Counted from the first letter of the stretch, positions 1,492 to 52,817 are shown. The stretch is 64,000 nt of DNA from Alphaproteobacteria bacterium (GCA_049297695.1 JBAQUT010000036.1:986-64985), one strand, 5' to 3'. The notes: generated by a model from the sequence alone, not told the origin. Made by a program: numbers and translations.

Positions 1492-1908
1492 TCATATTCC
1501 CAAACTGTTGATCATCAGTTCAGGATGCTTTCGGAGATATTGAGCCAGACTGCTTATTTGGGCATCGTACGTAAATACAGTTCCAGCACCTTCAAGAGCC
1601 TCAAGATATTCAGGGGAGTTGTTGATGGCTTTAGTTGTAACATCGTAGGCGTGATGATATCCCGTCCTCCAGTCAAAATGGAATGCGAATGAGGGAATTG
1701 ACGCAAGGAATGTATGTTCCCATAGGCTTAGCGTATCATGACGAGAGCCCCGTACAACATGCCCGCCCACATGTAGGAGCATGGTAAGGTTTGCCGCATG
1801 TAGGCCTGCAGGAATAATTGATAACGTGTCCCCAGTCTCACCGCGCCAACGTTCATAAAGAGTTCGATGAAGTTGGCACGTGAGAAGGAGTTTGTGGTTA
1901 ATATCCAC
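1492..1908 (-). CDS. hypothetical protein (reduced GC, ~47%)
   Basis: 138-aa ORF between the hypothetical gene and rne; local GC drop. Confidence 0.4.
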   Translation of the reverse strand: MDINHKLLLTCQLHRTLYERWRGETGDTLSIIPAGLHAANLTMLLHVGGHVVRGSRHDTLSLWEHTFLASIPSFAFHFDWRTGYHHAYDVTTKAINNSPEYLEALEGAGTVFTYDAQISSLAQYLRKHPELMINSLGI

Positions 1909-1913
1909 AGATA

Positions 1914-4271
1914 TTACCCCAACAACCCACCCAGCAGCCCTTTGCGGCGGGGTTTGGCTTTGGCAGGCACGGGCGTTTCTTCAACAGCGTCGGCGGCTAC
2001 AGCCAGCTTCACCACTTTCAGGGGTTCGTCGGTGCTGTCGGTGTCGGCTTGCTTTTTCACCTCCATTTTTTTCCGTTTGGCCACAATCACGGGCGTGTCG
2101 TCATCCGTCACCACGGCCACTTTGGCCACTTCCAAGGGTTTGTCCTCGGCAGGCGGGGCGGGGGGAGCCACATGCACGTGCTTGGCCTCGGCCTGTTTGG
2201 TGGGGCGTTTGATGGCCTGCTTCACCTCATCCAACGATGGGGCGGCGCGGGCGGCCATGGGGGCGTCCATCTCGGCCATAGGCGCTTCATCGTCCATGCG
2301 GCGGGGGCGTTCGCGTTCCGGCCCGCGTCCACGGCCACCATGGTTACGGTCGCGGCCGCCACGGTTGTCATCGCGGCCACGGCCACCGTTGCGGTCGTTC
2401 CGGTCGCGGCGGGGTTCGTCACCGCCTTCGGCACGGCCAGCATCCGTACGGGGTTCATCACGGTCGGAGCGGGGGCGGCGCTCTCGGTCGGGGCGTTCGC
2501 CGCGGGGGGCATCGTCGCGGTCGCGGCCACCTTTGGCACCATGATGCTGTTTGTAGCGTTGTTCGGGCGGCAGTTCGGGCTGTTCGCGCAGAATCACTTC
2601 CACCTTTTTGATATTCTCGCTGCCATCAGCCTTCACGGTCACCAGTTCCAAGCGGTGGTCGGGGGCCAGCAGGGTATCGTCGGCTTTGAACACCAGGTGG
2701 TATTTGTTTTTGGCTTCAAGGTCGGCCACCATGGCGCGCTTGCTGTTCATAATCCACATGAGGATGGAAGTTGCGGCGTGCACCACCACGCGGTCGGCGC
2801 CACGGCAATCTTCTTCTTCCAAGCGACGCAGCACCATAAGCGCGGCGCTGGCAGGGCTGTGAACTTGGCCCGTGCCGTTGCAATGGGGGCAGCTGATGAA
2901 GTGGTGTTCGGAGAGGCTAGGCCGCAAGCGCTGGCGGGATATTTCCATCAACCCAAACTCCGAGATATCGGTGTATTGCACGCGGGCACGGTCTTTCCGC
3001 AGCACTTTGCGCATGGCTTGCTCTACCTTGCGCACGTTGCGGTAGTCTTCCATGTCGATAAAGTCCACCACAATCAGGCCCGCAAGGTCGCGGAGGCGGA
3101 TGTGGCGGCCCAGCTCGTCGCAGGCCTCAAGGTTGGTTTTCACGGCCGTTTCTTCAATGTTCCGCTCGTGGGTGTTGCGGCCGCTGTTAATATCCACCGC
3201 CACCAAAGCTTCGGTGTGGTCGATAATCATGTAGCCGCCACTGGGCAATTGCACGCGGGAGAAGTTCAGCTGGTTCAGCTTTTGTTCCACCTTGTGGGCG
3301 GTAAACAAAGGCGTTTCGTCTTTATATTCCTTAATCAGCTTGGCGGCATCGGGCATCAGGGCCTTGGTGTAATCCTTCGCCACTTTGTAGGCGCGCTTGC
3401 CCGAGATAACCACTTCTTCAATGTCTTCCCGCAGCATGTCGCGCAAGGCACGGATAATCAGCGTACCGTCTTCGTGCACGCAGGCCACGTCGTCAGTCGT
3501 TTCGTAGGCTTTTATAATATTGTCCCACAGCGTGCGCATATTTTTATAGTCGTTCACCACGGCATCCACAGGCTGGCCCACACCGGCGGTGCGGATAATC
3601 AGCCCCATGTGGTTGGGCACTTTCATGGCGGCGTACATGTCGCGCAGCGTGCGGCGTTCTTCGGGGTCGGATATTTTGCGCGAAATACCGCCCGCAAACG
3701 GTGTGTTGGGCATCAGCACGGTGTAGCGGCCGGGCATAGACACATAGCTGGTAAGGGCGGCGCCTTTGCTGCCGCGTTCTTCCTTCACCACTTGCACTAG
3801 TATTTTTTGACCTTCTTTCAACACATCCTGAATGCGGTAGCGGCGGTAAATGCCGGGCTGGCGCTTGCGGTCGGAGCGGGGTTCGTCGCTTCCACCTTCA
3901 GCTGTGTTGCCCGCATCGTCGGCGGGAGGAGCCTCATCCGCGCCCTCGCTGCCATCATCCCGCAGGTGGCCGCGGCGGCGTTCGGCTTGTTCGGTAATTT
4001 CTTCCAGCAGTTCAGCCTTTTCACTATCCGGCACGGCAAAAAACTGGGGGTGCACTTCGCCAAAGGCCAAAAAGCCGTTGCGGGTGCCGCCATAGGTAAT
4101 AAAGGCCGCTTGCAGGCTCGGCTCAACGCGACTAACCACGCCAACATACAGGTTGCCTTTGTTTTGGGTTTTATCCGCGGTTTCGGCTTCAAAGTCGTCC
4201 AGCTTGGTGCCGTCTAAAATGGCAACGCGTGTTTCATCCAGGTGGGTGGCGTCAATCAGCATCCGTCTCAT
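1914..4271 (-). CDS. rne: ribonuclease E
   Basis: N-terminus MRRMLIDATHLDETRVAIL (S1 domain and catalytic domain); Arg/Asp/Glu-rich C-terminal scaffold; 785 aa. Confidence 0.9.
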   Translation of the reverse strand: MRRMLIDATHLDETRVAILDGTKLDDFEAETADKTQNKGNLYVGVVSRVEPSLQAAFITYGGTRNGFLAFGEVHPQFFAVPDSEKAELLEEITEQAERRRGHLRDDGSEGADEAPPADDAGNTAEGGSDEPRSDRKRQPGIYRRYRIQDVLKEGQKILVQVVKEERGSKGAALTSYVSMPGRYTVLMPNTPFAGGISRKISDPEERRTLRDMYAAMKVPNHMGLIIRTAGVGQPVDAVVNDYKNMRTLWDNIIKAYETTDDVACVHEDGTLIIRALRDMLREDIEEVVISGKRAYKVAKDYTKALMPDAAKLIKEYKDETPLFTAHKVEQKLNQLNFSRVQLPSGGYMIIDHTEALVAVDINSGRNTHERNIEETAVKTNLEACDELGRHIRLRDLAGLIVVDFIDMEDYRNVRKVEQAMRKVLRKDRARVQYTDISEFGLMEISRQRLRPSLSEHHFISCPHCNGTGQVHSPASAALMVLRRLEEEDCRGADRVVVHAATSILMWIMNSKRAMVADLEAKNKYHLVFKADDTLLAPDHRLELVTVKADGSENIKKVEVILREQPELPPEQRYKQHHGAKGGRDRDDAPRGERPDRERRPRSDRDEPRTDAGRAEGGDEPRRDRNDRNGGRGRDDNRGGRDRNHGGRGRGPERERPRRMDDEAPMAEMDAPMAARAAPSLDEVKQAIKRPTKQAEAKHVHVAPPAPPAEDKPLEVAKVAVVTDDDTPVIVAKRKKMEVKKQADTDSTDEPLKVVKLAVAADAVEETPVPAKAKPRRKGLLGGLLG

Positions 4272-4596: not shown

Positions 4597-4632
4597 TTGC
4601 ACGCTAAGCCTTGTACCTTGTACCTTGCCTTC

Positions 4633-5529
4633 ATGCCCTTTGCCACCCGCCTGTTCACGTTGCTGCTTGTGATGACGCTGATTTTTTTGCTCATCCACCT
4701 TGTGCCGGGCGACCCCGTGGAAGCGTTGTTGGGCGAGCAAGCCAGCGTGGTGGATAGGGAAGCCTTGCGCACCGCCTTGGGGCTGGATTTACCCCTGCAC
4801 ACCCAGTTTGTAAACTTTATGGGCGGCTTGGCAACGGGCGATTGGGGCACCAGCCTGGTGCGCAACAAACCCGTGCTGGGGCTGATGGCCGAACGTGCCA
4901 TGCCCACGGTGGTGCTGGCCCTTGCCGCCATGGCTGTGGCCACGGTGGTGGGGGGTGTGGGGGGCATTGCCACGGCCTTGGCCAAACCTGCCGCCAAGGG
5001 GTGGTGGGAGAAAGGGTTGCTGGCCGTGCTGGCCACCCCCACGTTTTGTTTGGGGCCGTTGCTGATGCTGGTGTTGGCGGTGGGGCTGGGCTGGCTGCCC
5101 GTAAGTGGGTTTGATGGCCCGCGTTCGTTGGTGTTGCCCGCCCTCACGTTAGGTTTGGGCTTGGGGACCCACTTGGCCCGCCTGCTGGCCGCCAGTTTGA
5201 GCGACGAACTTGAGGCCGAATACTTGCGCACCGCCCGCGCCAAAGGGGCCAGCGGGGCAAGGCGGTTGTTCCACCACGCCTTGCGCAACGCGCTGGTGCC
5301 GGTGGTGATTATCTTTTGCCTGCAACTGGGCATGGTGCTTACGGGCACGGTGCTTACCGAGGCGGTGTTCGGCTGGCCCGGCTTGGGCAGTTTGTTGGTA
5401 GAGGCCCTTCACGGGCGCGATTACCCGCTGGTGCAAGGCCTGCTGCTGCTTATCAGCCTCACCTACATGGCCGCGCTGGTGCTGGGCGATTGGCTGGCAG
5501 GACGGTTGGATGGGCGGTTGAGGGGTTGA
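4633..5529 (+). CDS. ABC transporter permease, DppB/OppB family
   Basis: MPFATRLFTLLLVMTLIFLLIHLVPGDP... typical N-terminus and length (~299 aa from ATG 4633). Confidence 0.75.
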   Translation: MPFATRLFTLLLVMTLIFLLIHLVPGDPVEALLGEQASVVDREALRTALGLDLPLHTQFVNFMGGLATGDWGTSLVRNKPVLGLMAERAMPTVVLALAAMAVATVVGGVGGIATALAKPAAKGWWEKGLLAVLATPTFCLGPLLMLVLAVGLGWLPVSGFDGPRSLVLPALTLGLGLGTHLARLLAASLSDELEAEYLRTARAKGASGARRLFHHALRNALVPVVIIFCLQLGMVLTGTVLTEAVFGWPGLGSLLVEALHGRDYPLVQGLLLLISLTYMAALVLGDWLAGRLDGRLRG

Positions 5530-5584
5530 CAATCTGTAGATTCAAAGTTATTTGATATTGTGTACACATAAAGAGGGGTATGTA

Positions 5585-5998
5585 ATGAAAAAGCCATTAA
5601 CAGTATCGGATTTCAAAGGTCAAGGTAGTTCTAATCTTCATGGGATTCGATGTAGTCCAGTTGCTTTTCCAATTGGAAATGAAAAACAAGATATAGAAAA
5701 CCTTTTACGAGTGATATATCCTAAGGTAGATGAATATTTAGTAGATAAATTTTATGTCGATAAAGTGAAACAATTTCATATAGCTGCTAATTTCATGCAA
5801 AGCTATTTCATGGAGATTGCAATGATGAGAACAGCTTTGACGGTGTTTGATTTTATAGAAGATGTACATCATATAACGCCCGTTATTATTTCATCTGTAT
5901 CTCAAAGTCTTGCTGAGCGTGGCTTTGTTGTGGCTCAAGGTTTTCACGCACATAACAAAGGCATCTACGTTCGTCGTGAGGGTAGTGTTGAGTTATAG
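5585..5998 (+). CDS. hypothetical protein, low-GC (~33%) insertion between the two permease genes
   Basis: ATG 5585 preceded by AGAGGGG RBS; AT-rich codon usage unlike its flanks. Confidence 0.45.
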   Translation: MKKPLTVSDFKGQGSSNLHGIRCSPVAFPIGNEKQDIENLLRVIYPKVDEYLVDKFYVDKVKQFHIAANFMQSYFMEIAMMRTALTVFDFIEDVHHITPVIISSVSQSLAERGFVVAQGFHAHNKGIYVRREGSVEL

Positions 5999-6005
5999 TT
6001 TTTAG

Positions 6006-6719
6006 GTGATTCATCTCGATACCATTCTGGCTGCTCCCAACGTCTTGCACTGGCTCGGCACCGACGAGCTTGGCCGCGACATTCTGCTGCGCCTCGGGCA
6101 GGGGGTGGGCTTAAGTCTCACCGTTGGGCTCTGTGTCGGAGCCATAACCGCGGTTGTGGGCATTACGCTGGGCCTGTGGGCGGGGTGGAAAGGCGGGTGG
6201 GTGGATACGCTGATAAACCGCCTGTGCGATGTGGTGCTCAGCCTGCCGGGCTTGCTGATGGCCTTGGCCCTGACCGCCTTGTTGGGCCCCAGCTTGGTGA
6301 ACGTGATTTTGGCCTTGGGCTTGTTGGGTTGGGTGGGCTTTTGCCGTTTGGCGCGGGCCGAAGTGTTGCGCCTGAAAAACCGCCCTTTTGTGCTGGCAGC
6401 CAAGCTGGGCGGGGTGGGCACGGCGGGTGTGCTGCTGCGCCATGTGCTACCCTTGGCGGCCCCCCCGTTGGTGGTGGAGGCCGTGGTGGTGGTGGCGGGC
6501 AGCATGGTGGCGGAGGCTGGGCTGAGCTTTTTGGGCTTAGGCGTGCCCCCACCCACCCCCAGCTTAGGGGGTATGCTGCGGGAGGGCATTCGCACCGCCA
6601 TGGTGGCCCCCCACGCCGTGCTGGCACCAGCGGTGGTGCTGATTGGTCTCACCGTATCCCTCAACATGGTGGCGGAAGGCTTGCGCGCGCGGTATCTTTC
6701 GGGCACCACACAAGGCTAG
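6006..6719 (+). CDS. ABC transporter permease, DppC/OppC family, apparently N-terminally truncated (first TM missing)
   Basis: Only ~17 aa precede the conserved LGTDELGRD loop motif (typical DppC has ~60-70 aa). In-frame stop immediately upstream at 6003-6005. GTG start. Confidence 0.6.
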   Translation: MIHLDTILAAPNVLHWLGTDELGRDILLRLGQGVGLSLTVGLCVGAITAVVGITLGLWAGWKGGWVDTLINRLCDVVLSLPGLLMALALTALLGPSLVNVILALGLLGWVGFCRLARAEVLRLKNRPFVLAAKLGGVGTAGVLLRHVLPLAAPPLVVEAVVVVAGSMVAEAGLSFLGLGVPPPTPSLGGMLREGIRTAMVAPHAVLAPAVVLIGLTVSLNMVAEGLRARYLSGTTQG

Positions 6720-7982
6720 ATGGGACGCTCCTTAAGTATCTTTATGGGCTGTATTCTGGCACTCGGGGCCTTGGTGTGGCCGCCCTTGTTGCCCCACGCC
6801 CAAGAGCCCGTGGCCAAAGTGATGGATGTGCGCATGAGCCACACCCAAGGCCGCACGCGGCTGGTGATGGATTTGGACAAACCCGCCAGCAACCGCTGGT
6901 TTACCCTGCCCAGCCCCGCCCGCGTGGTGGTAGATTTCCCCCAGCTGGATGTGGTGCCGGATATGGCCAAGGTGGTTATCCCCCAAGGTAGTTTGGTGAA
7001 AGCCTTAAGGGCGGGTAACTTCCGCGCTGGCACCACGCGGATGGTAGTGGATTTAACCGCCCCTGCGCGGCTGACGGTGTTCACCATCCCCGGTAACACC
7101 CAGCGCGGCCCGCGGCTGGTGATAGATGTGGTACCCCCCGCCAAAGGCAAACCCGCCACCGATGTTCCACCGCCGCCCGAAGTGGTGACCACCGTGCCCT
7201 TCAAACCCGGCGAACCTTCCACGCCAACCAAGCCCAGCAAAGGCGAACAACAACCCGCCCCCGTAGTGCCTCGTCAAGTGGTAACCGAGCCCACGGGCCC
7301 CTTGGTGGTTGTGCTGGATGCCGGCCATGGCGGGGTAGACCCCGGCGCCTGCGGCCGCACCGTGCACTTGTGCGAAAAGGGTCTGACGCTGGAAATGGCC
7401 AAGCTGGTGAAAGATAATTTGGAACAGAAGGGCGGGTATAAAGTGTTACTCTCCCGGGAGAAAGACGTGTACGTGGGGCTGGCCGACCGGGTCAAATACG
7501 CCCAGCGCCACAATGCCAACCTGTTTGTAAGCCTGCATGCCGACAGCCACCCCGACCGCGACGTGCAAGGCGCCACAGTGTATATGGTGAGTGAACGCGC
7601 CAGCGACCGAGAAGCCCAGCGTCTGGCCAACAGCGAAAACGAGGGCGATATTCTGGCAGGGGTGGATATAAGCCACGAAAGCCCCGAAGTGCAGAGCATT
7701 TTGATGAGCTTGGCTCAGCGCAACACCATCAACCACAGCAGTTATTTGGCCCAAAGCATGATAACGGCCATGGATAAAGTGCTGACCCTCCGTAAAAATA
7801 CGCCCTTGTTTGCTGGCTTTAAGGTGTTGAAAGCACCCGACATCCCTAGCATTTTGGTGGAAATGGGCTACCTGACCAACGGCTACGAAGAACGCCGTTT
7901 GAACGACAAAGCCCACCGCCGAGAGCTGGCCAAGGTCATCGCCAACGGCATCCATGCCTATGTAGGCACCCATGTGCGATAA
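6720..7982 (+). CDS. amiC: N-acetylmuramoyl-L-alanine amidase (AmiC-type, AMIN domain plus Amidase_3)
   Basis: VVVLDAGHGGVDPGA ... SLHADS motifs; N-terminal AMIN-like domain. Confidence 0.85.
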   Translation: MGRSLSIFMGCILALGALVWPPLLPHAQEPVAKVMDVRMSHTQGRTRLVMDLDKPASNRWFTLPSPARVVVDFPQLDVVPDMAKVVIPQGSLVKALRAGNFRAGTTRMVVDLTAPARLTVFTIPGNTQRGPRLVIDVVPPAKGKPATDVPPPPEVVTTVPFKPGEPSTPTKPSKGEQQPAPVVPRQVVTEPTGPLVVVLDAGHGGVDPGACGRTVHLCEKGLTLEMAKLVKDNLEQKGGYKVLLSREKDVYVGLADRVKYAQRHNANLFVSLHADSHPDRDVQGATVYMVSERASDREAQRLANSENEGDILAGVDISHESPEVQSILMSLAQRNTINHSSYLAQSMITAMDKVLTLRKNTPLFAGFKVLKAPDIPSILVEMGYLTNGYEERRLNDKAHRRELAKVIANGIHAYVGTHVR

Positions 7983-8073
7983 GTGAGTACAATTTAGGCA
8001 GATATGTGTATATTTTCTGGAAATCTACGTCCAACTTCGGCACCCTAAAGAACTTAGAGGGAAGGGGTTACGG

Positions 8074-8508
8074 ATGGATTTGCTCAATGTTAGGGTTCGT
8101 TGTCTCGAGTTTATTGCCAAGCTGGATAAAAACCCTGTAGGTGTGAACGAATATTTTTATGTTATTTTAGGTGTCGGTGAAAACCTGATTTCTGTTTACC
8201 CCATTGTTGTGCAAGAAATTGAAAAACGGAATGTGTTAGAAGCGCAAGATGGTAAACCCATATGGGAATTTGTACTGATAGACCATAATTTTAATCATGG
8301 TTCCCCGCTCACGGTTATTTTTGATATTGCCAAACGCTACCACCCTCGGGTTGACCAATTTTTCTTGGAGCAGGCAGCTGATATTCCTCCATTACCTAAT
8401 ACCCCCTACCGCGATGTGTTACGCCCCCACCACGATGCCCGCCGTGGCGAGAAAGGTAAACGCCGCGAAGTGTTGGGCCGCTGGCTGGGCGAGGGGCCTG
8501 AACTCTAA
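8074..8508 (+). CDS. hypothetical protein (5' part low GC)
   Basis: 144-aa ORF with RBS; immediately upstream of tRNA-Met. Confidence 0.35.
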   Translation: MDLLNVRVRCLEFIAKLDKNPVGVNEYFYVILGVGENLISVYPIVVQEIEKRNVLEAQDGKPIWEFVLIDHNFNHGSPLTVIFDIAKRYHPRVDQFFLEQAADIPPLPNTPYRDVLRPHHDARRGEKGKRREVLGRWLGEGPEL

Positions 8509-8554: not shown

Positions 8555-8630
8555 GGGCGAGTAGCTCAGCGGTTAGAGCAGGGCACTCATAATGCCTTGG
8601 TCGCTGGTTCGATTCCTGCCTCGCCCACCA
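8555..8630 (+). tRNA. tRNA-Met (CAT), elongator type
   Basis: Cloverleaf GGGCGAG...CTCGCCCACCA; anticodon loop CTCATAA; G1-C72 and no 3xGC anticodon stem, so not an initiator. Confidence 0.85.
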
Positions 8631-8747
8631 TGAATTTTAATTGCGGCAGGGTACTCCGCTGCGCTCCGTTTCCTGCCTCGCCCACCATGAGATTCAATTG
8701 CGGCAGGGTCCTCCGCTATGCTTCGGTTCTTTCCTCGCTCCCCAACC
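8614..8747 (+). repeat. 2.3 tandem copies of a 57-bp unit that begins with the tRNA-Met 3' end
   Basis: TCCTGCCTCGCCCACCATGA...ATTGCGGCAGGGT repeated at 8614, 8671 and degenerate at 8729. Confidence 0.6.
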
Positions 8748-43023: not shown

Positions 43024-43029
43024 TGCTCC

Positions 43030-43068
43030 CTAAAATCGTATAAACCCCCTCTACATCTTTTAGGGGGG
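43030..43068 (-). terminator. putative Rho-independent terminator after umuC
   Basis: CCCCCT...AGGGGG hairpin followed by a T-rich tract on the minus strand. Confidence 0.45.
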
Positions 43069-43081
43069 TGTGGCGTTGCTG

Positions 43082-44341: not shown

Positions 44342-44345
44342 CGCC

Positions 44346-44726
44346 CTACACCTTATGAATCACGTTGCTCACCACACCCCACACCACCAACTCATCCCCC
44401 AGCACCTTGGGCGGCTTGCCTTGTTCGCCCTGCAAGGCCCATTGCCCGTTGACCTTTACCAGCCGCCGCACAAACATCTCTCCCGCCACCACCGCTATCA
44501 CCACGCTCCCCACGGCGGGGGTAAGGCTCTTGTCCACCACCATTAAATCACCTTTAAAGATACCAGCCCCCTGCATGGCATCGGCTTTGGCCCGCACGAA
44601 ATAGGTGGCGGCGGGGTGCTTCACCAAATAGGCGTTCAAGTCCAAGTAACCCTCTAAAAAGTCATCGGCAGGGCTGGGGAAGCCAGCGGCTACGGAACCA
44701 TACAAGGGCAGGAGTTGGGGTTGCAT
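44346..44726 (-). CDS. umuD: UmuD-like S24 peptidase-fold protein with catalytic Ser and Lys replaced (Ala/Arg)
   Basis: VAAGFPSPA cleavage-site region aligns to UmuD CGFPSPA; ASGDSM becomes AKADAM and TVKKL becomes FVRRL. Confidence 0.7.
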
Positions 44727-45031
44727 GGGTTATTGTTGTATCATTAATCACCCGCGGTCAATCCCCATCTATCTCCTTGACGCTGGGGTTATCCCACTCT
44801 AACTTCACAGTTGGAGAGATAACTCTCTGGGGCATCAAAACCTCACAAGATGGCTGGCACCACCAAAAGAGTTGCTGTTTGTGTATTTAGCACATCCTAA
44901 GTTGCGCTCTATGCGGCTGGGTGGTGGTGCTATGTCCAAGGCGTAAGCTGAAAAGCCCCACGCCGTATCTTGTACGGTTTTGAACACCCAGCCACCTTTA
45001 TCGGGTGGCTTTTGTTTGAAACCAACAAAGG

Positions 45032-45334
45032 ATGCACACCATGAAACCCCTCTCTATTGCTGTTCTATTACTGTTATCGGCTTCCGCCGCCCATGCCGAA
45101 TGGGTGAATGGCTACACTCGCAGCAATGGCACCTACGTTGCCCCACACGCTCGTAGCGCCCCCGATGGCAACCGTTTCAACAACTACTCCACCCAAGGCA
45201 ACACAAACCCCTACACAGGCCAAGCGGGAACCGTGAACCCTTACAGCGCCAACCAAGGCGATGCAGGAAACGGCTTTGGTGGTAGCGGCTTCAACCAACC
45301 CAGCACGCCCCGTGGTTTTGGCGGGTGGAGATAA
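45032..45334 (+). CDS. small secreted Gly/Asn-rich hypothetical protein
   Basis: Signal peptide MKPLSIAVLLLLSASAAHA; 100 aa. Confidence 0.4.
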   Translation: MHTMKPLSIAVLLLLSASAAHAEWVNGYTRSNGTYVAPHARSAPDGNRFNNYSTQGNTNPYTGQAGTVNPYSANQGDAGNGFGGSGFNQPSTPRGFGGWR

Positions 45335-45480
45335 GCCATGCAGCAAGAAGATTCAGCCTCACGCCCTGAAATGGTGATTGTGTTTGGCTTTTTTACCCTC
45401 TGGGGGTTCATCGTTGGGCTGGGGGTGGGGTGGTGGGTTTGGTGTTGACATTGAATACAATGCTCTGGTACACCTGCCAT

Positions 45481-46386
45481 ATGGCCAAGATAGCAATCCA
45501 AAAATCCACTGGTGTTCCTGTGCATGCCCGTGACGCCTCCACAACAGCGTTAGAAAGAGGTTTAAACAGCCCTTTTGACTTTGCCTGTATGGAGTGCGGG
45601 GTAACATTGCGCTGCACGCATTACGCCAAACCGTTTTCGGATAAAGACCATGTGTATTTCGGTGTCTATGGTGACGCCTACAAGCATGAACCTTACTGCA
45701 ATTCAGCATATGGCTCGGAGTCAAATGGAAACACGCATAGCCATGAAGAGTGGGAACAAGATGATGTCGAGGTTGTCTCTCCCCGTGTCATGCAATTTGA
45801 ACCCCAAACAAGAAATTTCCCAGAGACTGACATTTCATCCCGCGAGGTTCGTTTAACAGGGCAACAAAAATCCAGAGAAACCCTCACCGATTTGATATGG
45901 AGAAACGGAACAAGTCTTTCCGCCCTCCGCAAAGCCAATGCCTATCAATTTAGAATTAGCGGCCAGATTTTCTCTATGGCTCAAATCTTTAATTCACCAA
46001 CAACAACTCTCATGAATGGTGTTGATGGTAAATCCTTTAATGGCGGTGTAGCATTTGGCTTAGCTCGGATATATAGCAAACCTGCGCCATCTGACCGAGT
46101 ATCCATCAACTTTATGGAACGGTTTAATCATGACGGAAATCTCATCCCTGTTATGGGCAAACTAGACCTTGATACATTACACCTTAACGACCCTATGAGG
46201 CACTGGATAAGAGATGGAATCCAACAAGGTGGGTTGTATGATATAGCCATTAAATGGCGCGAATCAGCTTTGGAGCGTGCCAAGAGAGACGGAGGAAGAT
46301 GGGAGTTTATGAAGGAATCGCCTCAGCTTTGGTTTACGGACATTGAGAAGATAGCTATCAAAGCAAGTTCTGGTAACGGTCGCTAA
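45481..46386 (+). CDS. hypothetical protein (island cargo, reduced GC) with N-terminal Cys/His cluster
   Basis: FACMECGVTLRCTHY...; no family recognised; the track ORF starts at 45430 and the first ATG is 45481. Confidence 0.45.
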   Translation: MAKIAIQKSTGVPVHARDASTTALERGLNSPFDFACMECGVTLRCTHYAKPFSDKDHVYFGVYGDAYKHEPYCNSAYGSESNGNTHSHEEWEQDDVEVVSPRVMQFEPQTRNFPETDISSREVRLTGQQKSRETLTDLIWRNGTSLSALRKANAYQFRISGQIFSMAQIFNSPTTTLMNGVDGKSFNGGVAFGLARIYSKPAPSDRVSINFMERFNHDGNLIPVMGKLDLDTLHLNDPMRHWIRDGIQQGGLYDIAIKWRESALERAKRDGGRWEFMKESPQLWFTDIEKIAIKASSGNGR

Positions 46387-46625
46387 ACCTCATCCGTAAT
46401 CAACTCCCTCCACACCCTCCAAATCTCTAAGTTTTCTAACGAATACCTCCCATGGATGAGGTTGGCCTTGCTAATCGCCTCCCTCCCAGCCTCGGTTTTA
46501 GGCCCCGTAGCCTTCCCCCCATGCAACCGACAACAGCCATTCCGCATGGCAGGTTGACGGCATAGTAGGCGGGTACGTTTGCAGCGGCACTTGCACTTGG
46601 GCAGGGTATGAATGGGAACGGACAT
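46383..46625 (-). CDS. small Cys-rich zinc-ribbon-like protein with an HGG motif (phage-associated type)
   Basis: CKCRCKRTRLLCRQPAMRNGCCRLHGGKATGPKT. Confidence 0.4.
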   Translation of the reverse strand: MSVPIHTLPKCKCRCKRTRLLCRQPAMRNGCCRLHGGKATGPKTEAGREAISKANLIHGRYSLENLEIWRVWRELITDEV

Positions 46626-46629
46626 GGGG

Positions 46630-47238
46630 TTATTCCTCGGTTTTGGGTTTACTGCCCCCACACCCCGCCACCGCCCCCACCACGGCTTGGCCGCCAGCTT
46701 GCACCTCCACCTTCTCCACCACCACACGCTGGGTGCTTATCCCCGCTTGCCGCATTTGGCGTAGCAAGTCCATTTGCCGCAGCAACACGTTTTGAGCTTT
46801 GTGGGCACGGTTGGTGTAATACCCCGCCACCTCCAAAGTGTTATCATCCAACGAGCGTGCCAGCATCCGCATTGCCACATGGTTGGTCGCCACTATCTGG
46901 GCTGCCAACATGCTTTCCAGTTCGTTTTGCGGAGCCAAACCATAAAGCTGGGCCACGATGTTGTTCACGGCATTGGCATCTTTGCTTGGCAAAATGGATT
47001 GCAGGTGGGTCAGCTTCACGTTGATGCTCCCCGCATCCAACGTGCCGAACGCTTGCGCCAGCGTGAACGTGGTTTGAGGTTCGTTCATCACGATGTGCAT
47101 CGAACGATTGCCATCGCCCGTATCTTCCAGCGCAAACTCTTTGCGGTTCTTGTAATCCTCCAGCTTGGCGTTCAACACGGCCCGCTTTTCGGGGGTCAGT
47201 TCAAGTGTCCCTTTGGGTTTGGGGGTGAGGTCGGTCAT
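46630..47238 (-). CDS. hypothetical protein (island)
   Basis: 202-aa ORF downstream of the AAA_25 gene. Confidence 0.4.
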   Translation of the reverse strand: MTDLTPKPKGTLELTPEKRAVLNAKLEDYKNRKEFALEDTGDGNRSMHIVMNEPQTTFTLAQAFGTLDAGSINVKLTHLQSILPSKDANAVNNIVAQLYGLAPQNELESMLAAQIVATNHVAMRMLARSLDDNTLEVAGYYTNRAHKAQNVLLRQMDLLRQMRQAGISTQRVVVEKVEVQAGGQAVVGAVAGCGGSKPKTEE

Positions 47239-47304
47239 GATTTTAGCTTTCGTTAGGTGTTCGTTCGTTCGGTTTCCTAGGAGTGCCGAACGCCGAACGG
47301 GTTA

Positions 47305-48228
47305 TTAGGCGGCTTCAGATTCATTTACCCATGTGTTGATGGTGGATGGGCTGGCCTTCAGTTGGCGGGCAATCTCACGCTGCCCCACACCTTGTTCATG
47401 CAGCACAATCGCTTGTTGCCGCCGTGGGTCAACTTTGCGCCCGCCTGTGTAGGGTTCGTGGTGCCAGATAGCGCCTTGGTCGGTCATCATAAGCCGTACC
47501 AAGGTGGGTTTTGATTCCTTGCCTTGCAGGTGGCGTTTCTTGTCAAAGTTCACCACAAAGTGGCTCCCTTCATCGGGTTCAGGCCCCGCAGGTTCGTACA
47601 ACTCAATGGTGATATCGTTCACCACGTTGTGTTGGCTGCTCCCCCGTTGGTCGCCCCCTTTACCAGCATGGTGCAAAATCAGAATAGCCATGCCGCTGGA
47701 ACGTAACGCCATCAACCAGCTTTGCACGTTATCCCATGTGCCCGAATCATTCTCTCGCATGTTGCTGAACAACGTGCTTTTGTTGTCCAGTACCAGCAAG
47801 TCACAGCCCACGTCATCCACGCGGCACATCAGCTCTTGCTGCCCTTCTTCCGTGTTCAGGTGCTTAATGCGGAACGGGCTTTCACATTGTGCCATGCTGT
47901 AAACAAACAGGTTACCGTGGGTGCCCTGTTTGCCTGTCATGGCATCCAGCCGCCGCATCAGCTCTTGGGAGGGCATTTCGCCATCCACATACACCACACG
48001 GGCTTGGCGGGCAGGGGTGAACCCCAAAAAGGGTTCTCCCCGCGCCAACGCAACCGAGAGGCCCAGCGCAAAGTTGCTTTTTCCAATCCCCGCCTTCGCA
48101 TAAAGCATGTTGATACTGTTGGTCAGCAACCACGGGGGCATGAGTACCTCCCGTGGTGGCAGTTCCAACGCCTGAAAGTCCTCGGCGGCAAAAAAGCCCC
48201 AAGGTGCGTTCGTAAGAGGATGGGTCAT
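47305..48228 (-). CDS. RecA-like NTPase (AAA_25 / RepA-DnaB-like replicative loader family) with C-terminal HTH
   Basis: AKAGIGKSNFAL Walker A; VLDNKSTLF; C-terminal HEQGVGQREIARQLKASPSTINTWV HTH. Confidence 0.6.
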   Translation of the reverse strand: MTHPLTNAPWGFFAAEDFQALELPPREVLMPPWLLTNSINMLYAKAGIGKSNFALGLSVALARGEPFLGFTPARQARVVYVDGEMPSQELMRRLDAMTGKQGTHGNLFVYSMAQCESPFRIKHLNTEEGQQELMCRVDDVGCDLLVLDNKSTLFSNMRENDSGTWDNVQSWLMALRSSGMAILILHHAGKGGDQRGSSQHNVVNDITIELYEPAGPEPDEGSHFVVNFDKKRHLQGKESKPTLVRLMMTDQGAIWHHEPYTGGRKVDPRRQQAIVLHEQGVGQREIARQLKASPSTINTWVNESEAA

Positions 48229-48647
48229 CGCACCACCTCCTCATGCACAATGCAATCAAGTGACCATATGCGAATGTAAGGCGCACCAGTCGGCGGTGTA
48301 ATGAGTTTGATGCGGAAATTGAACCCATACTCACGAAGCCTATCAAAAGCCCCCCAAAACCACTTAGGCGGCTTAGTTTGGGTGCTGAAGTGGCCAAAGC
48401 GTAGCATCTCCAGCGCCCTCACCTCAAAACCGTGAGGAGTCGCCAGTTTGGGCACCATTCCTTTACCCCGCTTCCGCCAAACATACCCATGCGGCAGCGG
48501 ATTTTGGTTGAACCACGGCAACGGTTGGGTTACTTTCCGATTGTTAGCCTTAGTTTTAGATTTGTTTAAAACCTCACGCTCGCCCTTGTAAGCACGTGGG
48601 GTTTTTTGTTTAGCGGCCATCGGTGTTACCCTCCCCTTGCTGGCCAT
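48225..48647 (-). CDS. hypothetical protein (possibly N-terminal partner of the replicase)
   Basis: 140-aa basic ORF overlapping the AAA_25 start by 4 nt. Confidence 0.35.
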   Translation of the reverse strand: MASKGRVTPMAAKQKTPRAYKGEREVLNKSKTKANNRKVTQPLPWFNQNPLPHGYVWRKRGKGMVPKLATPHGFEVRALEMLRFGHFSTQTKPPKWFWGAFDRLREYGFNFRIKLITPPTGAPYIRIWSLDCIVHEEVVR

Positions 48648-48864
48648 CTAGCCAAGCAAAAAACTTGGGTTCATCAATGTAAAGGCGCTTGCCAATCCTC
48701 ACCACGGCAATATCAAGGCCATTGCCTTTAACGGGGCCAACGCTGGAATGTCTGTCTTTGGCTTTCCACAAAAGGTTGCGCATTACGGAGGGCGGAAACG
48801 CGGGATTGCGTTCGGCGAATTTGTCCAGCGTCAGAATCAGCCGCTGGGGTGTTTCATTTGTCAT
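48610..48864 (-). CDS. AlpA/excisionase-family HTH (HTH_17) DNA-binding protein
   Basis: VVRIGKRLYIDEPKFFAWLDG resembles AlpA/Xis C-terminus. Confidence 0.55.
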   Translation of the reverse strand: MTNETPQRLILTLDKFAERNPAFPPSVMRNLLWKAKDRHSSVGPVKGNGLDIAVVRIGKRLYIDEPKFFAWLDGQQGEGNTDGR

Positions 48865-48981
48865 AGGTTTTATTCCTATCAGTTACCGCTAGGCCCCTGC
48901 ATCAATACTTGAGCATTCGCTAGCGTTGATAGGATTAGAACATGAGTTTATCTATATGAAAAGTAACGAGTATTTGCAAAG

Positions 48982-49872
48982 TCATTCACTTTGCAAACTT
49001 TTAATTACTTCGGTTACTAATCTCAACGATGGAGAACCATCTCCCATAGCTTTCATTGTTAACTTTGCAAGATTGTTTCTTGAAAAATTGGGATTTCGAT
49101 TCATAATGGGAATTGCAAAACTCTTAATAAGTTCATTTCTAGCTTTTGCTTGTTCTTTATTTTTAGTTAATCCCTTGCCCTGTCCTTTTGTGATTTTATA
49201 TCCCATTGTACCAAACATTCCTTGGGTCAAAAGATAATCCCCGCGCTTCATAGCAATGTTAAAATCATAATTTAGCCATTGATTTATTTGTCTTAAATCT
49301 CGTAAGTCTACAAGGTCAAGATTCCTACATCTTCCAATTTCTATCTCATCAGGGGATTCTGAGTAGTGAGACTGTTCAAGAATTTCTGAGTATTCACCGC
49401 ATCCAATCCATGAATGCATCCTTTCAGGTGCATAGTACTCTCCAACTCTTATTAATTTATCAATGTAGAGAAGATAGAGTGGATTCTCATAAATAAATTC
49501 ATGGGGCATTGGATATTCAGTTTTTAGGTAATTTTTGTAAAGCTCATACCTAATTACTTCTAATCCAGGGTGTATTAAAGGATGAGCTTTAAGCTGTTCA
49601 ATAATCCACGGTTCATTGTGACAATGCAGTAATTGAAAATCACGTTGCCGCTGACGTTCAATGTACTCTTTATTTAGACGTTCAATTTCATATTCAACAA
49701 TCCTACAGGGATAAGGTATGGTTGATTGTTTTAGTAAATCCTTTAGTAAGCTTTCACTATAGGGCACAGCCTCTATATCATTTAATCTTGAAATATGTCC
49801 TAAATCATATGGGGTCGCATATTCAATTTCATGAATTTTACAATCAAGAAGCTTAAAGTAGTGAGGTATCAC
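48982..49872 (-). CDS. hypothetical protein, strongly low-GC (~35%) cargo next to the integrase
   Basis: 296-aa ORF; no recognisable family; 4-bp overlap with the int stop. Confidence 0.5.
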   Translation of the reverse strand: MIPHYFKLLDCKIHEIEYATPYDLGHISRLNDIEAVPYSESLLKDLLKQSTIPYPCRIVEYEIERLNKEYIERQRQRDFQLLHCHNEPWIIEQLKAHPLIHPGLEVIRYELYKNYLKTEYPMPHEFIYENPLYLLYIDKLIRVGEYYAPERMHSWIGCGEYSEILEQSHYSESPDEIEIGRCRNLDLVDLRDLRQINQWLNYDFNIAMKRGDYLLTQGMFGTMGYKITKGQGKGLTKNKEQAKARNELIKSFAIPIMNRNPNFSRNNLAKLTMKAMGDGSPSLRLVTEVIKSLQSE

Positions 49873-50942
49873 CCAAACACCCTCTCCGTCATTTTGCTCA
49901 CCACTTCAACCGCGTGGTTATCGGCAAGGTGGGCATAGCGTTTCACCATTTGGATGCTGCGGTGGCCCAGAATGGCGGACAGCACGGGCAGGGTAACGCC
50001 TGATTCCAACAGGTAGGTGGCGGCGGTGTGGCGGAGGTCGTGGAAACGGAAGTCCTCTATTTTGGCTTCTTTGAGTGCGGCCTCCCAATGATTGGCTGGG
50101 TCAAGTGGAGCCATACCATCGGCACGGGGGAAGATGAGGTCGGTGTTCAAGCGCCTTACCTTGCTGGCTTCCTGCAAAACTCTATGCGCCAAGCCTGTCA
50201 GGGGTACGGAGCGTTTATCGCCGTTCTTACTATCTTCCACCCGTATCACCTGCCGCGTAAAATCCACATCCCGCCAGCGGAGGTTTAAGAGTTCACCCTT
50301 ACGCATCCCCGTACAAATAGCCATGACAACAAGGGGGTAAAGGAGCGGATGTCGGCCCTCCGCCTTACAGGCTTCCAACAGGGCTTTGCGTTCATCGGCG
50401 GAGAGATAGCGCACGCGGGCGTTGTTGGGTTCCAGCTTTCTTACTTCATTCAAAGGATTAAGGCGAATCCAGTTCAACTCCTTGTGGGCATACGCTAAGG
50501 CGGCGGAAAGGGCTATGAGGTAATGGTTGACGGTGGCGGCCTTGATACGTTGGGCATCCTTGACGTTCCGCCATGTCTTTTGCATGAGTTCCCGCTTGTA
50601 GGTGTTGATTTTGTCGGCGGTAATGTCGATGAGGTATTTATCCCCCAGCCGCTCCTTCCACCACATAAGTTGCTTTTCACGTTGGGCGTACTGATAAGCC
50701 CCCACAGTGTGTTTATAGTTGATAAGGTAATCGGTAATGGTTTCATGAAGGGTACGGACAGCGGCCTCATGGTTTTCAAACTTCAAACCGCGCTTGATGT
50801 CCGCTTCCTCTTTTTGTACCCAATCCTTGGCATCGGAGAGGCGTTCAAATGAGGCGCTTTTGGGTTTATGGCCCTTTAGTCTTATTTTTGCCCGATATGT
50901 TGGGACACCGTTCCGCCCTTTACGCTTTTCAATAACCGCCAT
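49869..50942 (-). CDS. int: tyrosine-type site-specific integrase (P4-like)
   Basis: N-terminal arm-binding region MAVIEKRKGRNGVPTYRAKIR; catalytic HDLRHT...LGH...Y (KRYAHL). Confidence 0.85.
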   Translation of the reverse strand: MAVIEKRKGRNGVPTYRAKIRLKGHKPKSASFERLSDAKDWVQKEEADIKRGLKFENHEAAVRTLHETITDYLINYKHTVGAYQYAQREKQLMWWKERLGDKYLIDITADKINTYKRELMQKTWRNVKDAQRIKAATVNHYLIALSAALAYAHKELNWIRLNPLNEVRKLEPNNARVRYLSADERKALLEACKAEGRHPLLYPLVVMAICTGMRKGELLNLRWRDVDFTRQVIRVEDSKNGDKRSVPLTGLAHRVLQEASKVRRLNTDLIFPRADGMAPLDPANHWEAALKEAKIEDFRFHDLRHTAATYLLESGVTLPVLSAILGHRSIQMVKRYAHLADNHAVEVVSKMTERVFG

Positions 50943-50976
50943 TTTTCATACCCATCTTAGATTCTAGCTATTCCCA

Positions 50977-50998
50977 TTTGGGACACTCTTGGGACATT
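50977..50998. repeat. 22-bp direct repeat TTTGGGACACTCTTGGGACATT (copy 2, between int and attR)
   Basis: Identical to 43002-43023. Confidence 0.6.
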
Positions 50999-51115
50999 AG
51001 AGCATAGTAAGTAGGAATAATCCAGCGGAGGCTAAAGCAAGGTGATTCGTTATTATTCAAATGGATGATTACTTTTGTTACTTTCCTATTATTCCCATTT
51101 ATACCGCTGGTCAAA

Positions 51116-51170
51116 ACTGTAAATCAGTTGGCGTACGCCTTCGAAGGTTCGAATCCTTCTTCCTCCACCA
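51116..51170 (+). repeat. attR: duplicated 3' 55 nt of tRNA-Tyr
   Basis: Identical to 42886-42940; not preceded by the 5' half of a tRNA. Confidence 0.8.
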
Positions 51171-51255
51171 TATTTGCCCCAAGGGGGCTTATGACAAAGC
51201 AAGAAGAAGGAACAACGGCTTCACACGGCCGCAGGCCACATACAAACCAGCCGTC

Positions 51256-51276
51256 ATCCTTCTTCCTCCACCATTT
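51256..51276 (+). repeat. third, 21-bp copy of the tRNA-Tyr 3' terminus (ATCCTTCTTCCTCCACCATTT)
   Basis: Lies 85 bp beyond attR. Confidence 0.55.
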
Positions 51277-51346
51277 GCTTCCTTCAGCGCGCCCACCTTG
51301 TTCCCCACCTCCCACCATGCTAAGAAAGCCTTTGAAAAGGCACGTT

Positions 51347-52531
51347 ATGAATCAGATGTACGATGTGATTGTGGTGGGGGCAGGTGGCGCTGGCCTGATG
51401 TGCGCGGCCGAGGCGGGCAAGCGTGGCCGCCGCGTGTTGGTGGTAGACCACGGGGACGAGATTGGGCGCAAAATATTGATTTCCGGCGGCGGGCGCTGCA
51501 ATTTTACCAACGTGGGGGCGCGGGCGGAACGGTATATTTCCCGCAACCCGCACTTTTGCAAATCCGCCTTGGCGCAGGTTACGCCCCAGCATTTTATCCA
51601 GCTGGTGGAGAAGAACGGCATTGCCTACCACGAGAAAAAGTTGGGCCAGTTGTTTTGCGATGATTCGGCCCAGAACATTGTGGATATGCTGCTGCGGGAG
51701 TGTGCGGAAGCGGGGGTAGACATCCAGCTGCAATGCACGGTGGAAAATATTGAAAAGGGAGGGGAGGGCTTTACCCTTGCCACCAGCCACGGCACGTTTG
51801 AGTGCCAAAGCCTTGTGGTGGCCACGGGAGGGTTGTCCATCCCCAAGCTGGGGGCCAGCAACTTTGGTTACAAAGTGGCCCAGCAGTTTGGCGTGCCCGT
51901 GGTGCCCACCACGCCTGCCTTGGTGCCGTTTACGTTTACCGAACGCGATTTGGCGTTTTACGATGGCTTATCCGGCATCGCGTTTGATGCCGAGGTAACC
52001 TGCGGCAAAACTACCTTTCGGGAGAATGTGCTGATAACCCACCGGGGGGCCAGCGGCCCGGCCATTTTGCAAATATCCTCGTATTGGAATGCGGGGGAGG
52101 AGATCCATATCTGGATTATGCCGGAGGTGAACTGGGGCGAGGTGATGAAACAAGCCCGTACAACTAGCCCCAAACAAGAGCTGAAAACGGTACTTTCTGA
52201 CATTGTGGCCAAGCGGTTTGTGCAGTGTTTGGTGGAGAAGGGGATGATACCCGCCACGCACATGGCCGAGCTTGGGGATACGCAGATTGCGGCGGTGCAT
52301 AAGCTGCTGACCGATTTTGTGATAAAACCCAACGGAACCGAAGGTTACCGCAAGGCCGAGGTGACGGCGGGCGGGGTGGATACCAACGCGCTGAACGCCA
52401 GCACCATGGAGTGCAGCACTGTGCCTGGATTATATTTTATCGGCGAAGTGGTGGATGTGACCGGGTGGTTGGGGGGGTATAACTTCCAGTGGGCATGGGC
52501 ATCCGGCGCGGTGGCGGGGCGGAATGCGTGA
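51347..52531 (+). CDS. NAD(P)/FAD-dependent oxidoreductase, YhiN/BaiN (HI0933-like) flavoprotein family
   Basis: MYDVIVVGAGGAGLMCAAEAGKRG Rossmann motif; ~394 aa. Confidence 0.75.
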   Translation: MNQMYDVIVVGAGGAGLMCAAEAGKRGRRVLVVDHGDEIGRKILISGGGRCNFTNVGARAERYISRNPHFCKSALAQVTPQHFIQLVEKNGIAYHEKKLGQLFCDDSAQNIVDMLLRECAEAGVDIQLQCTVENIEKGGEGFTLATSHGTFECQSLVVATGGLSIPKLGASNFGYKVAQQFGVPVVPTTPALVPFTFTERDLAFYDGLSGIAFDAEVTCGKTTFRENVLITHRGASGPAILQISSYWNAGEEIHIWIMPEVNWGEVMKQARTTSPKQELKTVLSDIVAKRFVQCLVEKGMIPATHMAELGDTQIAAVHKLLTDFVIKPNGTEGYRKAEVTAGGVDTNALNASTMECSTVPGLYFIGEVVDVTGWLGGYNFQWAWASGAVAGRNA

Positions 52532-52544
52532 TGCTAAGAAGTGG

Positions 52545-52817
52545 TTAGCGTTGAGGATCGTTCTCGTTTGCAGAATAGGACTGAAAAGAACGAAACGAGT
52601 TACCAGTAAAAAGATACGACATATCGAGAGCTAAATAGTGGGATAAATCCATAAGCCTTTTGGGGCCTGCACGCAGCAAGCCAGCCTCAATTTGCTTCAT
52701 TTCTGCTGGAGAAATAGCCGTGTAGCGCCAAATGTCTTCCAAATTTACGCCTTTGAGGATACGAGCAAAGCGCATGCGGGTTCCAATCGCGATATCAATG
52801 GGGTTTTGAGGTTTCAT
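52545..52817 (-). CDS. XRE-family HTH transcriptional regulator, low GC
   Basis: IGTRMRFARILKGVNLEDIWRYTAISPAEMKQIEAG HTH. Confidence 0.5.
   Translation of the reverse strand: MKPQNPIDIAIGTRMRFARILKGVNLEDIWRYTAISPAEMKQIEAGLLRAGPKRLMDLSHYLALDMSYLFTGNSFRSFQSYSANENDPQR

Follow-up and report, generated by a model that had tools for sequence, protein, structure and literature searches.

AT-rich single genes at core-gene junctions in an uncultured bacterial lineage: a heterogeneous set of accessory genes with several probable routes of arrival

ORFans are short, AT-rich, real genes of narrow distribution (Yu and Stoltzfus 2012, PMC3514957), and integrative elements are a frequent source of them (Cortez et al. 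2009, PMC2718499). More broadly, accessory genes have been shown to be lower in guanine-plus-cytosine (GC) content than core genes (Bohlin et al. 2017, PMC5303225). Many hotspots of horizontal gene transfer (HGT) carry no mobile-element genes, and their content turns over through recombination in the flanking core genes (2017, PMC5635113). Likewise, flexible genomic islands have been described either as additive, tRNA-linked islands with partial tRNA repeats or as replacement islands (Lopez-Perez and Rodriguez-Valera 2016, PMC4898812). The subject here is a set of low-GC open reading frames (ORFs), standing singly between conserved genes, in a stretch of 64,000 nucleotides (the window; GCA_049297695.1, JBAQUT010000036.1:986-64985) from a metagenome-assembled genome (MAG) that is labelled “Alphaproteobacteria bacterium” and belongs to an uncultured or unsampled environmental lineage. 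A preliminary description of the window listed ten such ORFs as wedged precisely into conserved operons, mostly without flanking mobility genes, and offered two explanations: a single, unrecognised mechanism of targeted gene insertion, or orphan accessory genes, perhaps of the immunity or antitoxin type, under selection that maintains their AT-richness.

Taken as a whole, the evidence favors reading the low-GC ORFs as ordinary, lineage-specific accessory genes that sit at core-gene junctions and have arrived and turned over by several known routes, a reading to which a probability of about 0.72 is assigned. The set is heterogeneous, comprising an integrase island, two tRNA sites, a clean insertion, an insertion combined with a deletion, a replacement slot, a hyperdivergent block, a chance ORF and two marginal members (Table 1). 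Three routes are proposed. The first is site-specific integration, in which a tyrosine recombinase targeted the 3' half of tRNA-Tyr and gave rise to the 8.2-kb island with ORFs I and J; duplicated tRNA 3' ends point to past recombination events at tRNA-Arg and at tRNA-Met, which would belong here as well. The second would be illegitimate insertion of small, self-contained cassettes with their own ribosome-binding site, cleanly in the case of the NUDIX gene and at the cost of the oppC 5' end in the case of ORF B. The third would be replacement at a fixed slot (ctaB-cox11 and slot H), for which homologous recombination within the conserved neighbor genes is the most probable means. Following arrival, the genes would persist, stay protein-coding and keep their AT-richness over long periods.

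Table 1. Coordinates of the low-GC ORFs, the segments that hold them and associated features, counted from the first nucleotide of the window.
Feature	Start	End	Strand	Description
ORF A	1492	1908	-	138 amino acids (aa), GC 0.47; downstream of rne; marginal member
Insert B	5530	6005	+	476 bp, GC 0.35; ORF B at 5585-5998, 137 aa, own Shine-Dalgarno sequence; between oppB and 5'-truncated oppC
oppC-like permease gene	6006	6719	+	237 aa, compared with 269 aa in L095; without first transmembrane helix
Slot C	7979	8508	+	low-GC segment 7979-8401 holds most of ORF C (8074-8508, 144 aa); between amiC and tRNA-Met
tRNA-Met and repeats	8555	8700	+	tRNA 8555-8630; copies of 57-bp tandem unit at 8610-8643 and 8667-8700, degenerate third (to 8740)
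Insert D (NUDIX gene)	13808	14346	+	gene 13862-14347, 161 aa, GC 0.41, own Shine-Dalgarno sequence; in rlmJ-ctaA spacer
Slot E	16166	16541	-	AT-rich 376-bp filler between ctaB and cox11; antisense ORF E at 16162-16506, 114 aa
ORF F	18165	18350	+	61 aa, GC 0.50; within 471-bp spacer ahead of dnaB
Slot G (GNAT gene)	32361	32786	+	141 aa, GC 0.37; Pfam Acetyltransf_1 1.1e-14; ATG overlaps trhO stop (ATGA)
tRNA-Arg and duplicate	32780	32978	-	tRNA 32902-32978; 32780-32801 resembles 32898-32919, with a 15-nt exact core
Slot H	34374	34850	+	ORF H at 34374-34790 (138 aa, GC 0.39), SCO1 promoter region and first SCO1 codons
Island	42886	51170		8.2 kb; attL 42886-42940, attR 51116-51170; umuDC, AAA_25/helix-turn-helix (HTH) protein, small ORFs, integrase
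ORF I	45430	46386	+	318 aa, GC 0.46; within island; absent from the preliminary list
ORF J	48982	49872	-	296 aa, GC 0.34; just downstream of integrase gene, start overlapping integrase stop
Integrase (tyrosine recombinase)	49869	50942	-	PF00589 1.6e-35; PF24624 Int_N
ORF L	52545	52817	-	90 aa, GC 0.45; weak HTH (XRE-like); antisense, between flavin adenine dinucleotide (FAD) enzyme gene and NifU-like gene; marginal

The low-GC ORFs stand out clearly from their surroundings. The window as a whole has a GC content of 56.7%, and its ordinary genes (n = 43, from a simple gene map) have a GC of 0.590 +/- 0.031 (lowest 0.526) and a GC at third codon positions (GC3) of 0.721 +/- 0.042 (lowest 0.61). 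All ten listed ORFs lie under the full GC range of these genes (0.34-0.50; z from -2.9 to -8.1) and below their GC3 as well (0.25-0.55), bearing out the preliminary description of them as compositional outliers. A two-state hidden Markov model (HMM) of GC content marked seven of the ten segments (5526-6026, 7979-8401, 13804-14361, 16152-16584, 32356-32871, 34361-34747 and 48852-49869), made no call at ORFs A, F and L, and added a call at 45550-46445 that the preliminary description had overlooked. When ORF lengths were compared with dinucleotide shuffles of each segment, all exceeded chance (P ≤ 0.03) save that of ORF F (P = 0.74), such that nine of the ten proposed members are longer than expected, with ORF F at chance level and ORFs A and L marginal. 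The domain labels given to three of the ORFs agree with Pfam (NUDIX, 3e-17; GNAT, with the value in Table 1; HTH, a weak 4e-4). Finally, each encoded protein forms a cluster of its own at 90% identity in a collection of 15 billion proteins. Among the neighbors of their genes are rne, two opp-type permease genes, amiC, rhlE, rlmJ, ctaA, ctaB, cox11, dnaB, trhO, prepilin peptidase, a short PolyA_pol-head protein, SCO1 and yajC-secDF.

Contigs of related, uncultured lineages were obtained through their CtaB and SecD homologues; a CtaB scan of genome contigs gave, among the matches listed, relatives of ~50% identity only. A clear example of insertion is seen in the cta operon. In relatives with 72% CtaB identity, the gene order is rlmJ-ctaA-ctaB-ydjM-cox11-hydrolase, and in L082, L083, L085 and L086 the rlmJ-ctaA gap measures 10-64 bp with no gene between. 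Because this spacer is gene-free in the relatives, the NUDIX gene is a clean insertion of 538 bp. Its stop codon shares the sequence TAATG with the ctaA ATG (14345-14349), and this overlap, like the ATGA shared by trhO and the GNAT gene at 32361-32364, exists as first described. Relatives of the NUDIX protein were found at the family level only (~30% identity); it also matches a candidate defence family, PDC-S07 (1.4e-11), a match that may merely mirror the generic NUDIX fold.

Farther along the same operon, slot E has a different history. In the relatives with 72% CtaB identity the slot is occupied by ydjM (PF04307, GC 0.62-0.68), and in the closest relative, L081 (80% CtaB identity), it holds an unrelated 120-aa membrane ORF (1703-2065, + strand, GC 0.43). 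Across the window and these relatives, a single ctaB-cox11 slot thus has three unrelated contents. ORF E occupies the position that belongs to ydjM in relatives, and for this member the term “wedged precisely” fails. Decay of ydjM was considered as the origin of the segment and rejected, as no similarity to ydjM is left over.

The best-surviving alternative to acquisition, standing at somewhat less than an even chance, is that ORFs A, E and F were never acquired, being instead AT-rich noncoding or decayed DNA with a chance ORF, or young de novo genes. For ORF F the case is plain: its length is at chance level and the GC of its spacer (0.51) equals the pooled intergenic GC of the window (0.51), so that neither its status as a gene nor its place in the set is supported; a Pfam search gave no family match. 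ORF E fits the idea in running antisense to the cta operon where ydjM was lost, and ORF A in being represented in the protein collection by a Logan gene call only, with no NCBI record. No family match was found for any of the three, including searches of ORF A against Pfam, PHROGs, PADLOC and NCBIfam. Against this alternative, ORFs A and E are longer than their shuffles (P = 0.009 and 0.003, respectively), and the slot E segment, besides its lack of any ydjM remnant, has a GC of 43%, AT-richer than native spacers. Of the two marginal members, ORF A has a GC z score of -3.9, and ORF L matches HTH_19 at 4e-4 (under the Pfam cut-off) and a PHROG transcriptional regulator at 1e-3, with a length P of 0.03.

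ORFs I and J belong to an element of a familiar kind. The stretch of tRNA-Tyr that runs from its anticodon loop to its CCA end recurs at the far end of the island; the repeat is exact over at least 49 bp and is read as ~55 bp. A tyrosine recombinase gene lies at one end, its protein matching the XerA, XerD and integron-integrase families below their cut-offs in every case, and it is the only recombinase in the window. With an end-located tyrosine recombinase and a repeat of the tRNA 3' end both present, the element at 42886-51170 is a conventional integrative element. The picture of ORFs free of flanking mobility genes consequently breaks down for ORF J, which overlaps the recombinase gene inside an island flanked by attachment (att) sites. 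The island backbone has a GC of 0.53-0.58, near that of the host, and ORFs I and J are isolated AT-rich singles within it; ORF J has no relatives in Pfam, PHROGs, PADLOC, NCBIfam or phage genomes. Slightly inward of each end of the island (43003-43021 and 50978-50996) is an exact 19-nt direct repeat, TTGGGACACTCTTGGGACA, itself a tandem TTGGGACA; it may be an arm-type site of the integrase, or else a regulatory site.

Several further features were noted in and around the island. Within the island, the interval from umuD to the following ORF contains a sub-threshold match to sRNA-Xcc1 (41.7 bits, compared with a gathering threshold of 53; E 6e-4) at 44915-45001 on the + strand. The long ORF of the FAD enzyme (51065-52531, + strand) crosses attR with its 5' end, and its TIGR00275 match begins at residue 101; the true start is probably near 51365. 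Upstream of the island, a one-piece transfer-messenger RNA (tmRNA) is found at 42135-42565 on the + strand (Rfam RF00023, 98 bits; ARAGORN tag AKSTVDNSLAARRAMRAMPMAMAA). The tmRNA of Alphaproteobacteria is typically a two-piece, permuted molecule, and the taxonomic label of the MAG, or the placement of its lineage, may be worth checking.

Two more slots adjoin tRNA genes, and here too the impression of a setting free of mobility features does not hold. At slot G, the GNAT gene converges on tRNA-Arg, and ~17 nt (15-19) of the tRNA 3' end are duplicated directly after the GNAT stop, with a terminator hairpin between the two copies. This duplicate is the scar of a site-specific recombination event. 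Relatives of the GNAT protein, from plasmids and NCBIfam, were found at the family level only (~30% identity). At slot C, tRNA-Met has ORF C on its 5' side and, on its 3' side, ~2.5 copies of a 57-bp unit that starts with the tRNA-Met 3' end. These tandem copies resemble stacked remnants of att sites downstream of a tRNA. ORF C is 92% identical in amino acid sequence in the close relative L177, with a synonymous divergence (dS) of 0.21 and a ratio of non-synonymous to synonymous divergence (dN/dS) of 0.18, both flank-like; identity across the slot is even, at ~93%, with no abrupt edge of divergence. By these values ORF C has been inherited vertically, as an ordinary gene subject to purifying selection. 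A tRNA-Met-like fragment within ORF C, hinted at by short repeats, was sought in a permissive Rfam scan, which found nothing there.

At slot B, the insertion was not clean. Specifically, in L095, a contig found by an OppC scan of metagenome contigs (among the matches listed), OppC is 63% identical to that of the window, the oppB stop overlaps the oppC start, and nothing lies between. The OppC N-terminus of L095 (MRGATVLGLGIALALVALQAVAWL...) includes the first transmembrane helix, which is absent from the oppC of the window, where an in-frame TAG stands directly 5' of the GTG start; NCBIfam alignments of the latter begin at profile position 29-46 in most related permease models. Insert B thus took the place of ~30 oppC codons, and it looks like the product of illegitimate recombination rather than of precise wedging, a description that fails for this ORF as well. 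The oppB and oppC genes (4597-6719, + strand) stand alone between rne and amiC, with no substrate-binding or ATPase genes nearby, and the truncated oppC has a strong codon bias and, in its N-terminal region, a dN/dS of 0.12 relative to the sister lineage described below.

When 1.84 billion representatives were searched exhaustively with HMMER, a single homologue of ORF B emerged, P0253 (E 2.5e-11), with an identity of 40% within the matched stretch and 35% globally. This protein (B') sits in the same oppB-oppC slot in a sister lineage, L175/L176, and oppC is likewise truncated in L175. The OppB C-terminus is 95% identical to that of L175 (dS 0.74, non-synonymous divergence [dN] 0.03), the dS of the slot B flanks ranges from 0.74 to 1.78, and the dN of ORF B is 0.75. 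ORFs B and B' are equal in length, with a conserved C-terminus, and have a GC3 of 0.25 and 0.24, respectively. Because the slot and the oppC truncation are the same in both lineages, B and B' are descendants of one ancestral insertion. The L175 homologue has its own GC-rich hairpin terminator (GCCCCCCCTTGCGGGGG, then a T-run; 718-774); ORF B of the window is without it, with 7 nt between its stop and the oppC start.

A sharp pattern is found at slot H. In a close relative, L178, PolyA_pol and SCO1 are each 97% identical to those of the window, with a dS of 0.14 and 0.11, respectively. ORF H and its L178 allele, H', in contrast, share 50% amino acid identity, with a dN of 0.43 and a saturated dS, and both are AT-rich (GC 0.39 and 0.38; GC3 0.33 and 0.35). 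Nucleotide identity to L178 is mostly 94-100% up to the ATG of ORF H, falls to ~55-60% from 34375 to ~34850, and returns to 90-100% thereafter. The edges of this block are sharp and do not coincide with the ORF, as the block takes in the promoter of SCO1 and its first codons as well. The noncoding spacer downstream of H is 35-70% identical to L178, its sole conserved piece being a promoter-like pair, TTGACG...TAC-CT. These patterns indicate that the block coalesces much further back in time than the sequence around it, the mark of alleles exchanged, or retained, through recombination in conserved flanks. Since such exchange requires donors in which the slot is bordered by the same genes, the AT-rich H alleles have presumably lived in GC-rich relatives throughout their divergence. 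A similar jump in divergence is seen at slot B, where it is not decisive.

No relatives of ORF H were found in plasmids or IMG/VR, PDB profile searches with H and B gave chance-level matches only, and hhalign detected no link between the H family and either the ORF next to SCO1 in L089 or the ORF downstream of PolyA_pol in L091. A CCA-adding enzyme split by ORF H was considered and rejected, the downstream gene being SCO1 and the short PolyA_pol protein being conserved in relatives. This protein, with a PolyA_pol head only (~235 aa), is encoded at 33626-34342 (+ strand) in the window, at 19848-20546 in L091 and at 45-755 in L178; its gene overlaps the prepilin-peptidase gene, an arrangement kept in relatives, and the product would be an unusual, minimal nucleotidyltransferase.

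It is tempting to go further and suggest that H and B are single-gene replacement islets, that is, ancient, hyperdivergent alleles of small cytoplasmic proteins, maintained in the population by frequency-dependent selection (for example, with an anti-phage or immunity role), that are swapped via their flanks and, being unable to recombine internally, escape GC-biased gene conversion and stay AT-rich in a GC-rich genome. This is offered tentatively and is, on the whole, doubtful. Less likely still is that the divergence of H and B arose in place, through fast evolution, diversifying selection or local hypermutation, with no exchange of alleles. In favor of such a course are the descent of B and B' from one insertion and the dN of B, which is not above the dS of its flanks and so would allow near-neutral evolution; raised non-synonymous diversity is, moreover, known in ORFans (PMC3514957). 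At slot H, however, both synonymous sites and the downstream spacer have diverged far beyond the flanks, which selection on the protein cannot cause, and the differences between H and H' (46, 28 and 67 of 119 codons at codon positions 1, 2 and 3, respectively) follow the 3 > 1 > 2 order of purifying selection. In-place evolution appears to be excluded for H because its dN is ~3x the yardstick set by flank dS and the noncoding sequence is equally diverged. Nor does the window contain the template repeat of a diversity-generating retroelement or a second copy of H or B, and the differences are of all types.

An equally low GC in relatives, which the preliminary description regarded as the mark of an ancient gene rather than of an insertion, was found in related lineages for ORFs B, C and H, which are thus no recent arrivals, and for the set as a whole only in part. 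As B is still AT-rich after a flank dS of 0.74, and H after saturated dS, low GC is here a stable state and not a shortage of time for amelioration. Our favored guess as to the cause is that hyperdivergent alleles are spared the force by which GC is raised in core genes that recombine. This force would be biased gene conversion or codon-usage selection, and alleles that escape it would settle near an AT-biased mutational equilibrium. An alternative cause, or one acting jointly with it, is selection for AT-rich sequence, for example through the binding of a xenogeneic silencer. In substance, then, the second explanation of the preliminary description, orphan accessory genes of persistent AT-richness, has stood up well, the members being ORFans or small enzymes and the B and H pairs being AT-rich on both sides; its immunity or antitoxin element has not, as no evidence of either role was found. 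Specifically, ORFs B, C, E, H, I and J gave no match in PADLOC, Pfam, NCBIfam or PHROGs and no paired small gene, and ORF B had no match in phage genomes. Single-sequence AlphaFold models of B and H had predicted local distance difference test (pLDDT) scores of 34 and 42, too low for use.

Several observations weigh against the reading of these ORFs as accessory genes of several known routes, or against parts of it. The pooled intergenic GC exceeds the ORFan GC3 of 0.25-0.45, a poor fit to the idea of a mutational equilibrium; drift to the noncoding composition of the host is thus insufficient. The GNAT gene lies outside the tRNA-Arg repeat interval, and its arrival by way of an integrase is thus no more than a suggestion. 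A search for donors in PHROGs, plasmids, phage genomes, IMG/VR and NCBIfam found none for any of the ORFs. Finally, the comparisons draw on one or two related sequences per slot, from short metagenomic contigs, and slots A, G and L are without a compared relative.

The first explanation of the preliminary description, one unrecognised, targeted single-gene system (integron- or homing-like) that places AT-rich cassettes at the stop/start junctions of operons, is highly improbable. It would account for several inserts filling their gaps exactly and overlapping the stop or start codons of their neighbors, for most inserts having no mobility gene nearby, and for the reuse of slots in relatives. 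A system of this kind should leave some common trace, and none was found: the all-vs-all comparison of segments with their 100-bp flanks, which the preliminary description had proposed together with a search for flank motifs, yielded only 12-14-nt chance matches save for the att repeat of the island, and the inserts share no inverted repeat, target-site duplication or terminal repeat, their flanking repeats being short and at chance level. The low-GC ORF proteins have no mutual similarity, and the inserts differ in orientation. Likewise, no attC-like inverted repeat or shared 3' motif typical of integrons is present, the cassettes are dispersed with no array, and the island recombinase scored 65 bits against an integron-integrase cut-off of 265; no transposase domain of an insertion sequence, miniature inverted-repeat transposable element or transposon was found in the scanned ORFs. 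Around A, B, D, E, H and L there is neither an integrase nor a flanking tRNA repeat. Moreover, part of oppC was lost with one insert, ydjM was replaced at one slot, and two ORFs lie in the conventional island that is home to the only recombinase in the window. With no shared motif, repeat or protein family and with histories that differ, a single mechanism finds no footing here. Least credible of all is that the low-GC segments are assembly chimeras or contamination, as might be suspected of a MAG and of a contig (L179) that starts at 16240, inside the slot E segment, since independent per-run assemblies from other SRA runs show 100% identity to 33114-36895 (with the order PolyA_pol-H-SCO1) and to 16240-27114, Logan assemblies also contain most of the ORF proteins, homologous ORFs stand at the same slots in relatives, and the junctions keep the reading frames of the neighbors; the segments are not assembly artefacts.

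The pattern extends beyond the window. AT-rich ORFans were also seen in relatives, at the slots described here or elsewhere between core genes, including L085 (3693-4067, - strand, GC 0.44), L089 (1111-1581, + strand, GC 0.40, directly upstream of SCO1), L091 (20566-21003, downstream of PolyA_pol) and, as noted above, the ctaB-cox11 slot of L081. Judging from these contigs, AT-rich ORFans between conserved genes would be a clade-wide pattern made up of unrelated ORFs.

AT-rich ORFans between core genes are a textbook pattern and call for no new mobile-element mechanism. What the window adds is a clean, small-scale illustration that the low GC of an accessory gene need not signal recent acquisition: in the B and H pairs, a GC3 of 0.24-0.35 has been kept on both sides of a divergence that is synonymous-saturating, or nearly so, in GC-rich genomes. 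This bears on the AT-richness of accessory genes and ORFans in general, a feature whose candidate explanations are donor composition, failed amelioration, silencing-related selection and an escape from biased gene conversion. Slots H and B are loci where population data from the clade could separate these explanations and, if they are indeed replacement islets, they would constitute a natural experiment on the AT-richness of accessory genes.

Phage morons are single-gene cassettes that are autonomous, deviate in GC and come with a promoter and a terminator of their own. The present ORFs are similar in being single, lower-GC genes with their own ribosome-binding site within conserved modules; the L175 homologue of ORF B also has its own hairpin terminator, and ORF J resides in a mobile element. 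Unlike morons, most of the inserts are found in chromosomal housekeeping operons rather than in prophages, and their relatives among PHROGs and phage genomes are limited to generic NUDIX, GNAT and HTH matches.

The likeness to HGT hotspots (PMC5635113) is closer. Accessory genes occupy fixed core junctions at which relatives have other content or none, different content at the same core-gene pair being found for B, D, E and H; most slots are without an integrase or transposase; and identity switches sharply at ORF H, the slot where abrupt edges of divergence beyond the local rate were found. The present slots differ in holding one gene of 0.4-0.5 kb each, sometimes within an operon, and in being known from 1-3 genomes per slot. 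Additive islands (PMC4898812) are matched by the tRNA-Tyr island with its partial tRNA repeat and by the 3' duplicates of tRNA-Arg and tRNA-Met, and replacement islands (PMC4898812) by slots E and H, with their unrelated or hyperdivergent versions between the same core genes. The replacement islands described so far are multi-gene clusters for cell-surface glycans, whereas those considered here encode single, small, cytoplasmic or uncharacterised proteins that have no connection with surface structures. Finally, like ORFans in general, the genes are short (90-320 aa), have a GC far under that of the host, are protein-coding under purifying selection and include a subset carried by an integrative element; they go beyond general surveys, which do not address the matter, in that two of them have stayed AT-rich through synonymous-saturating divergence.

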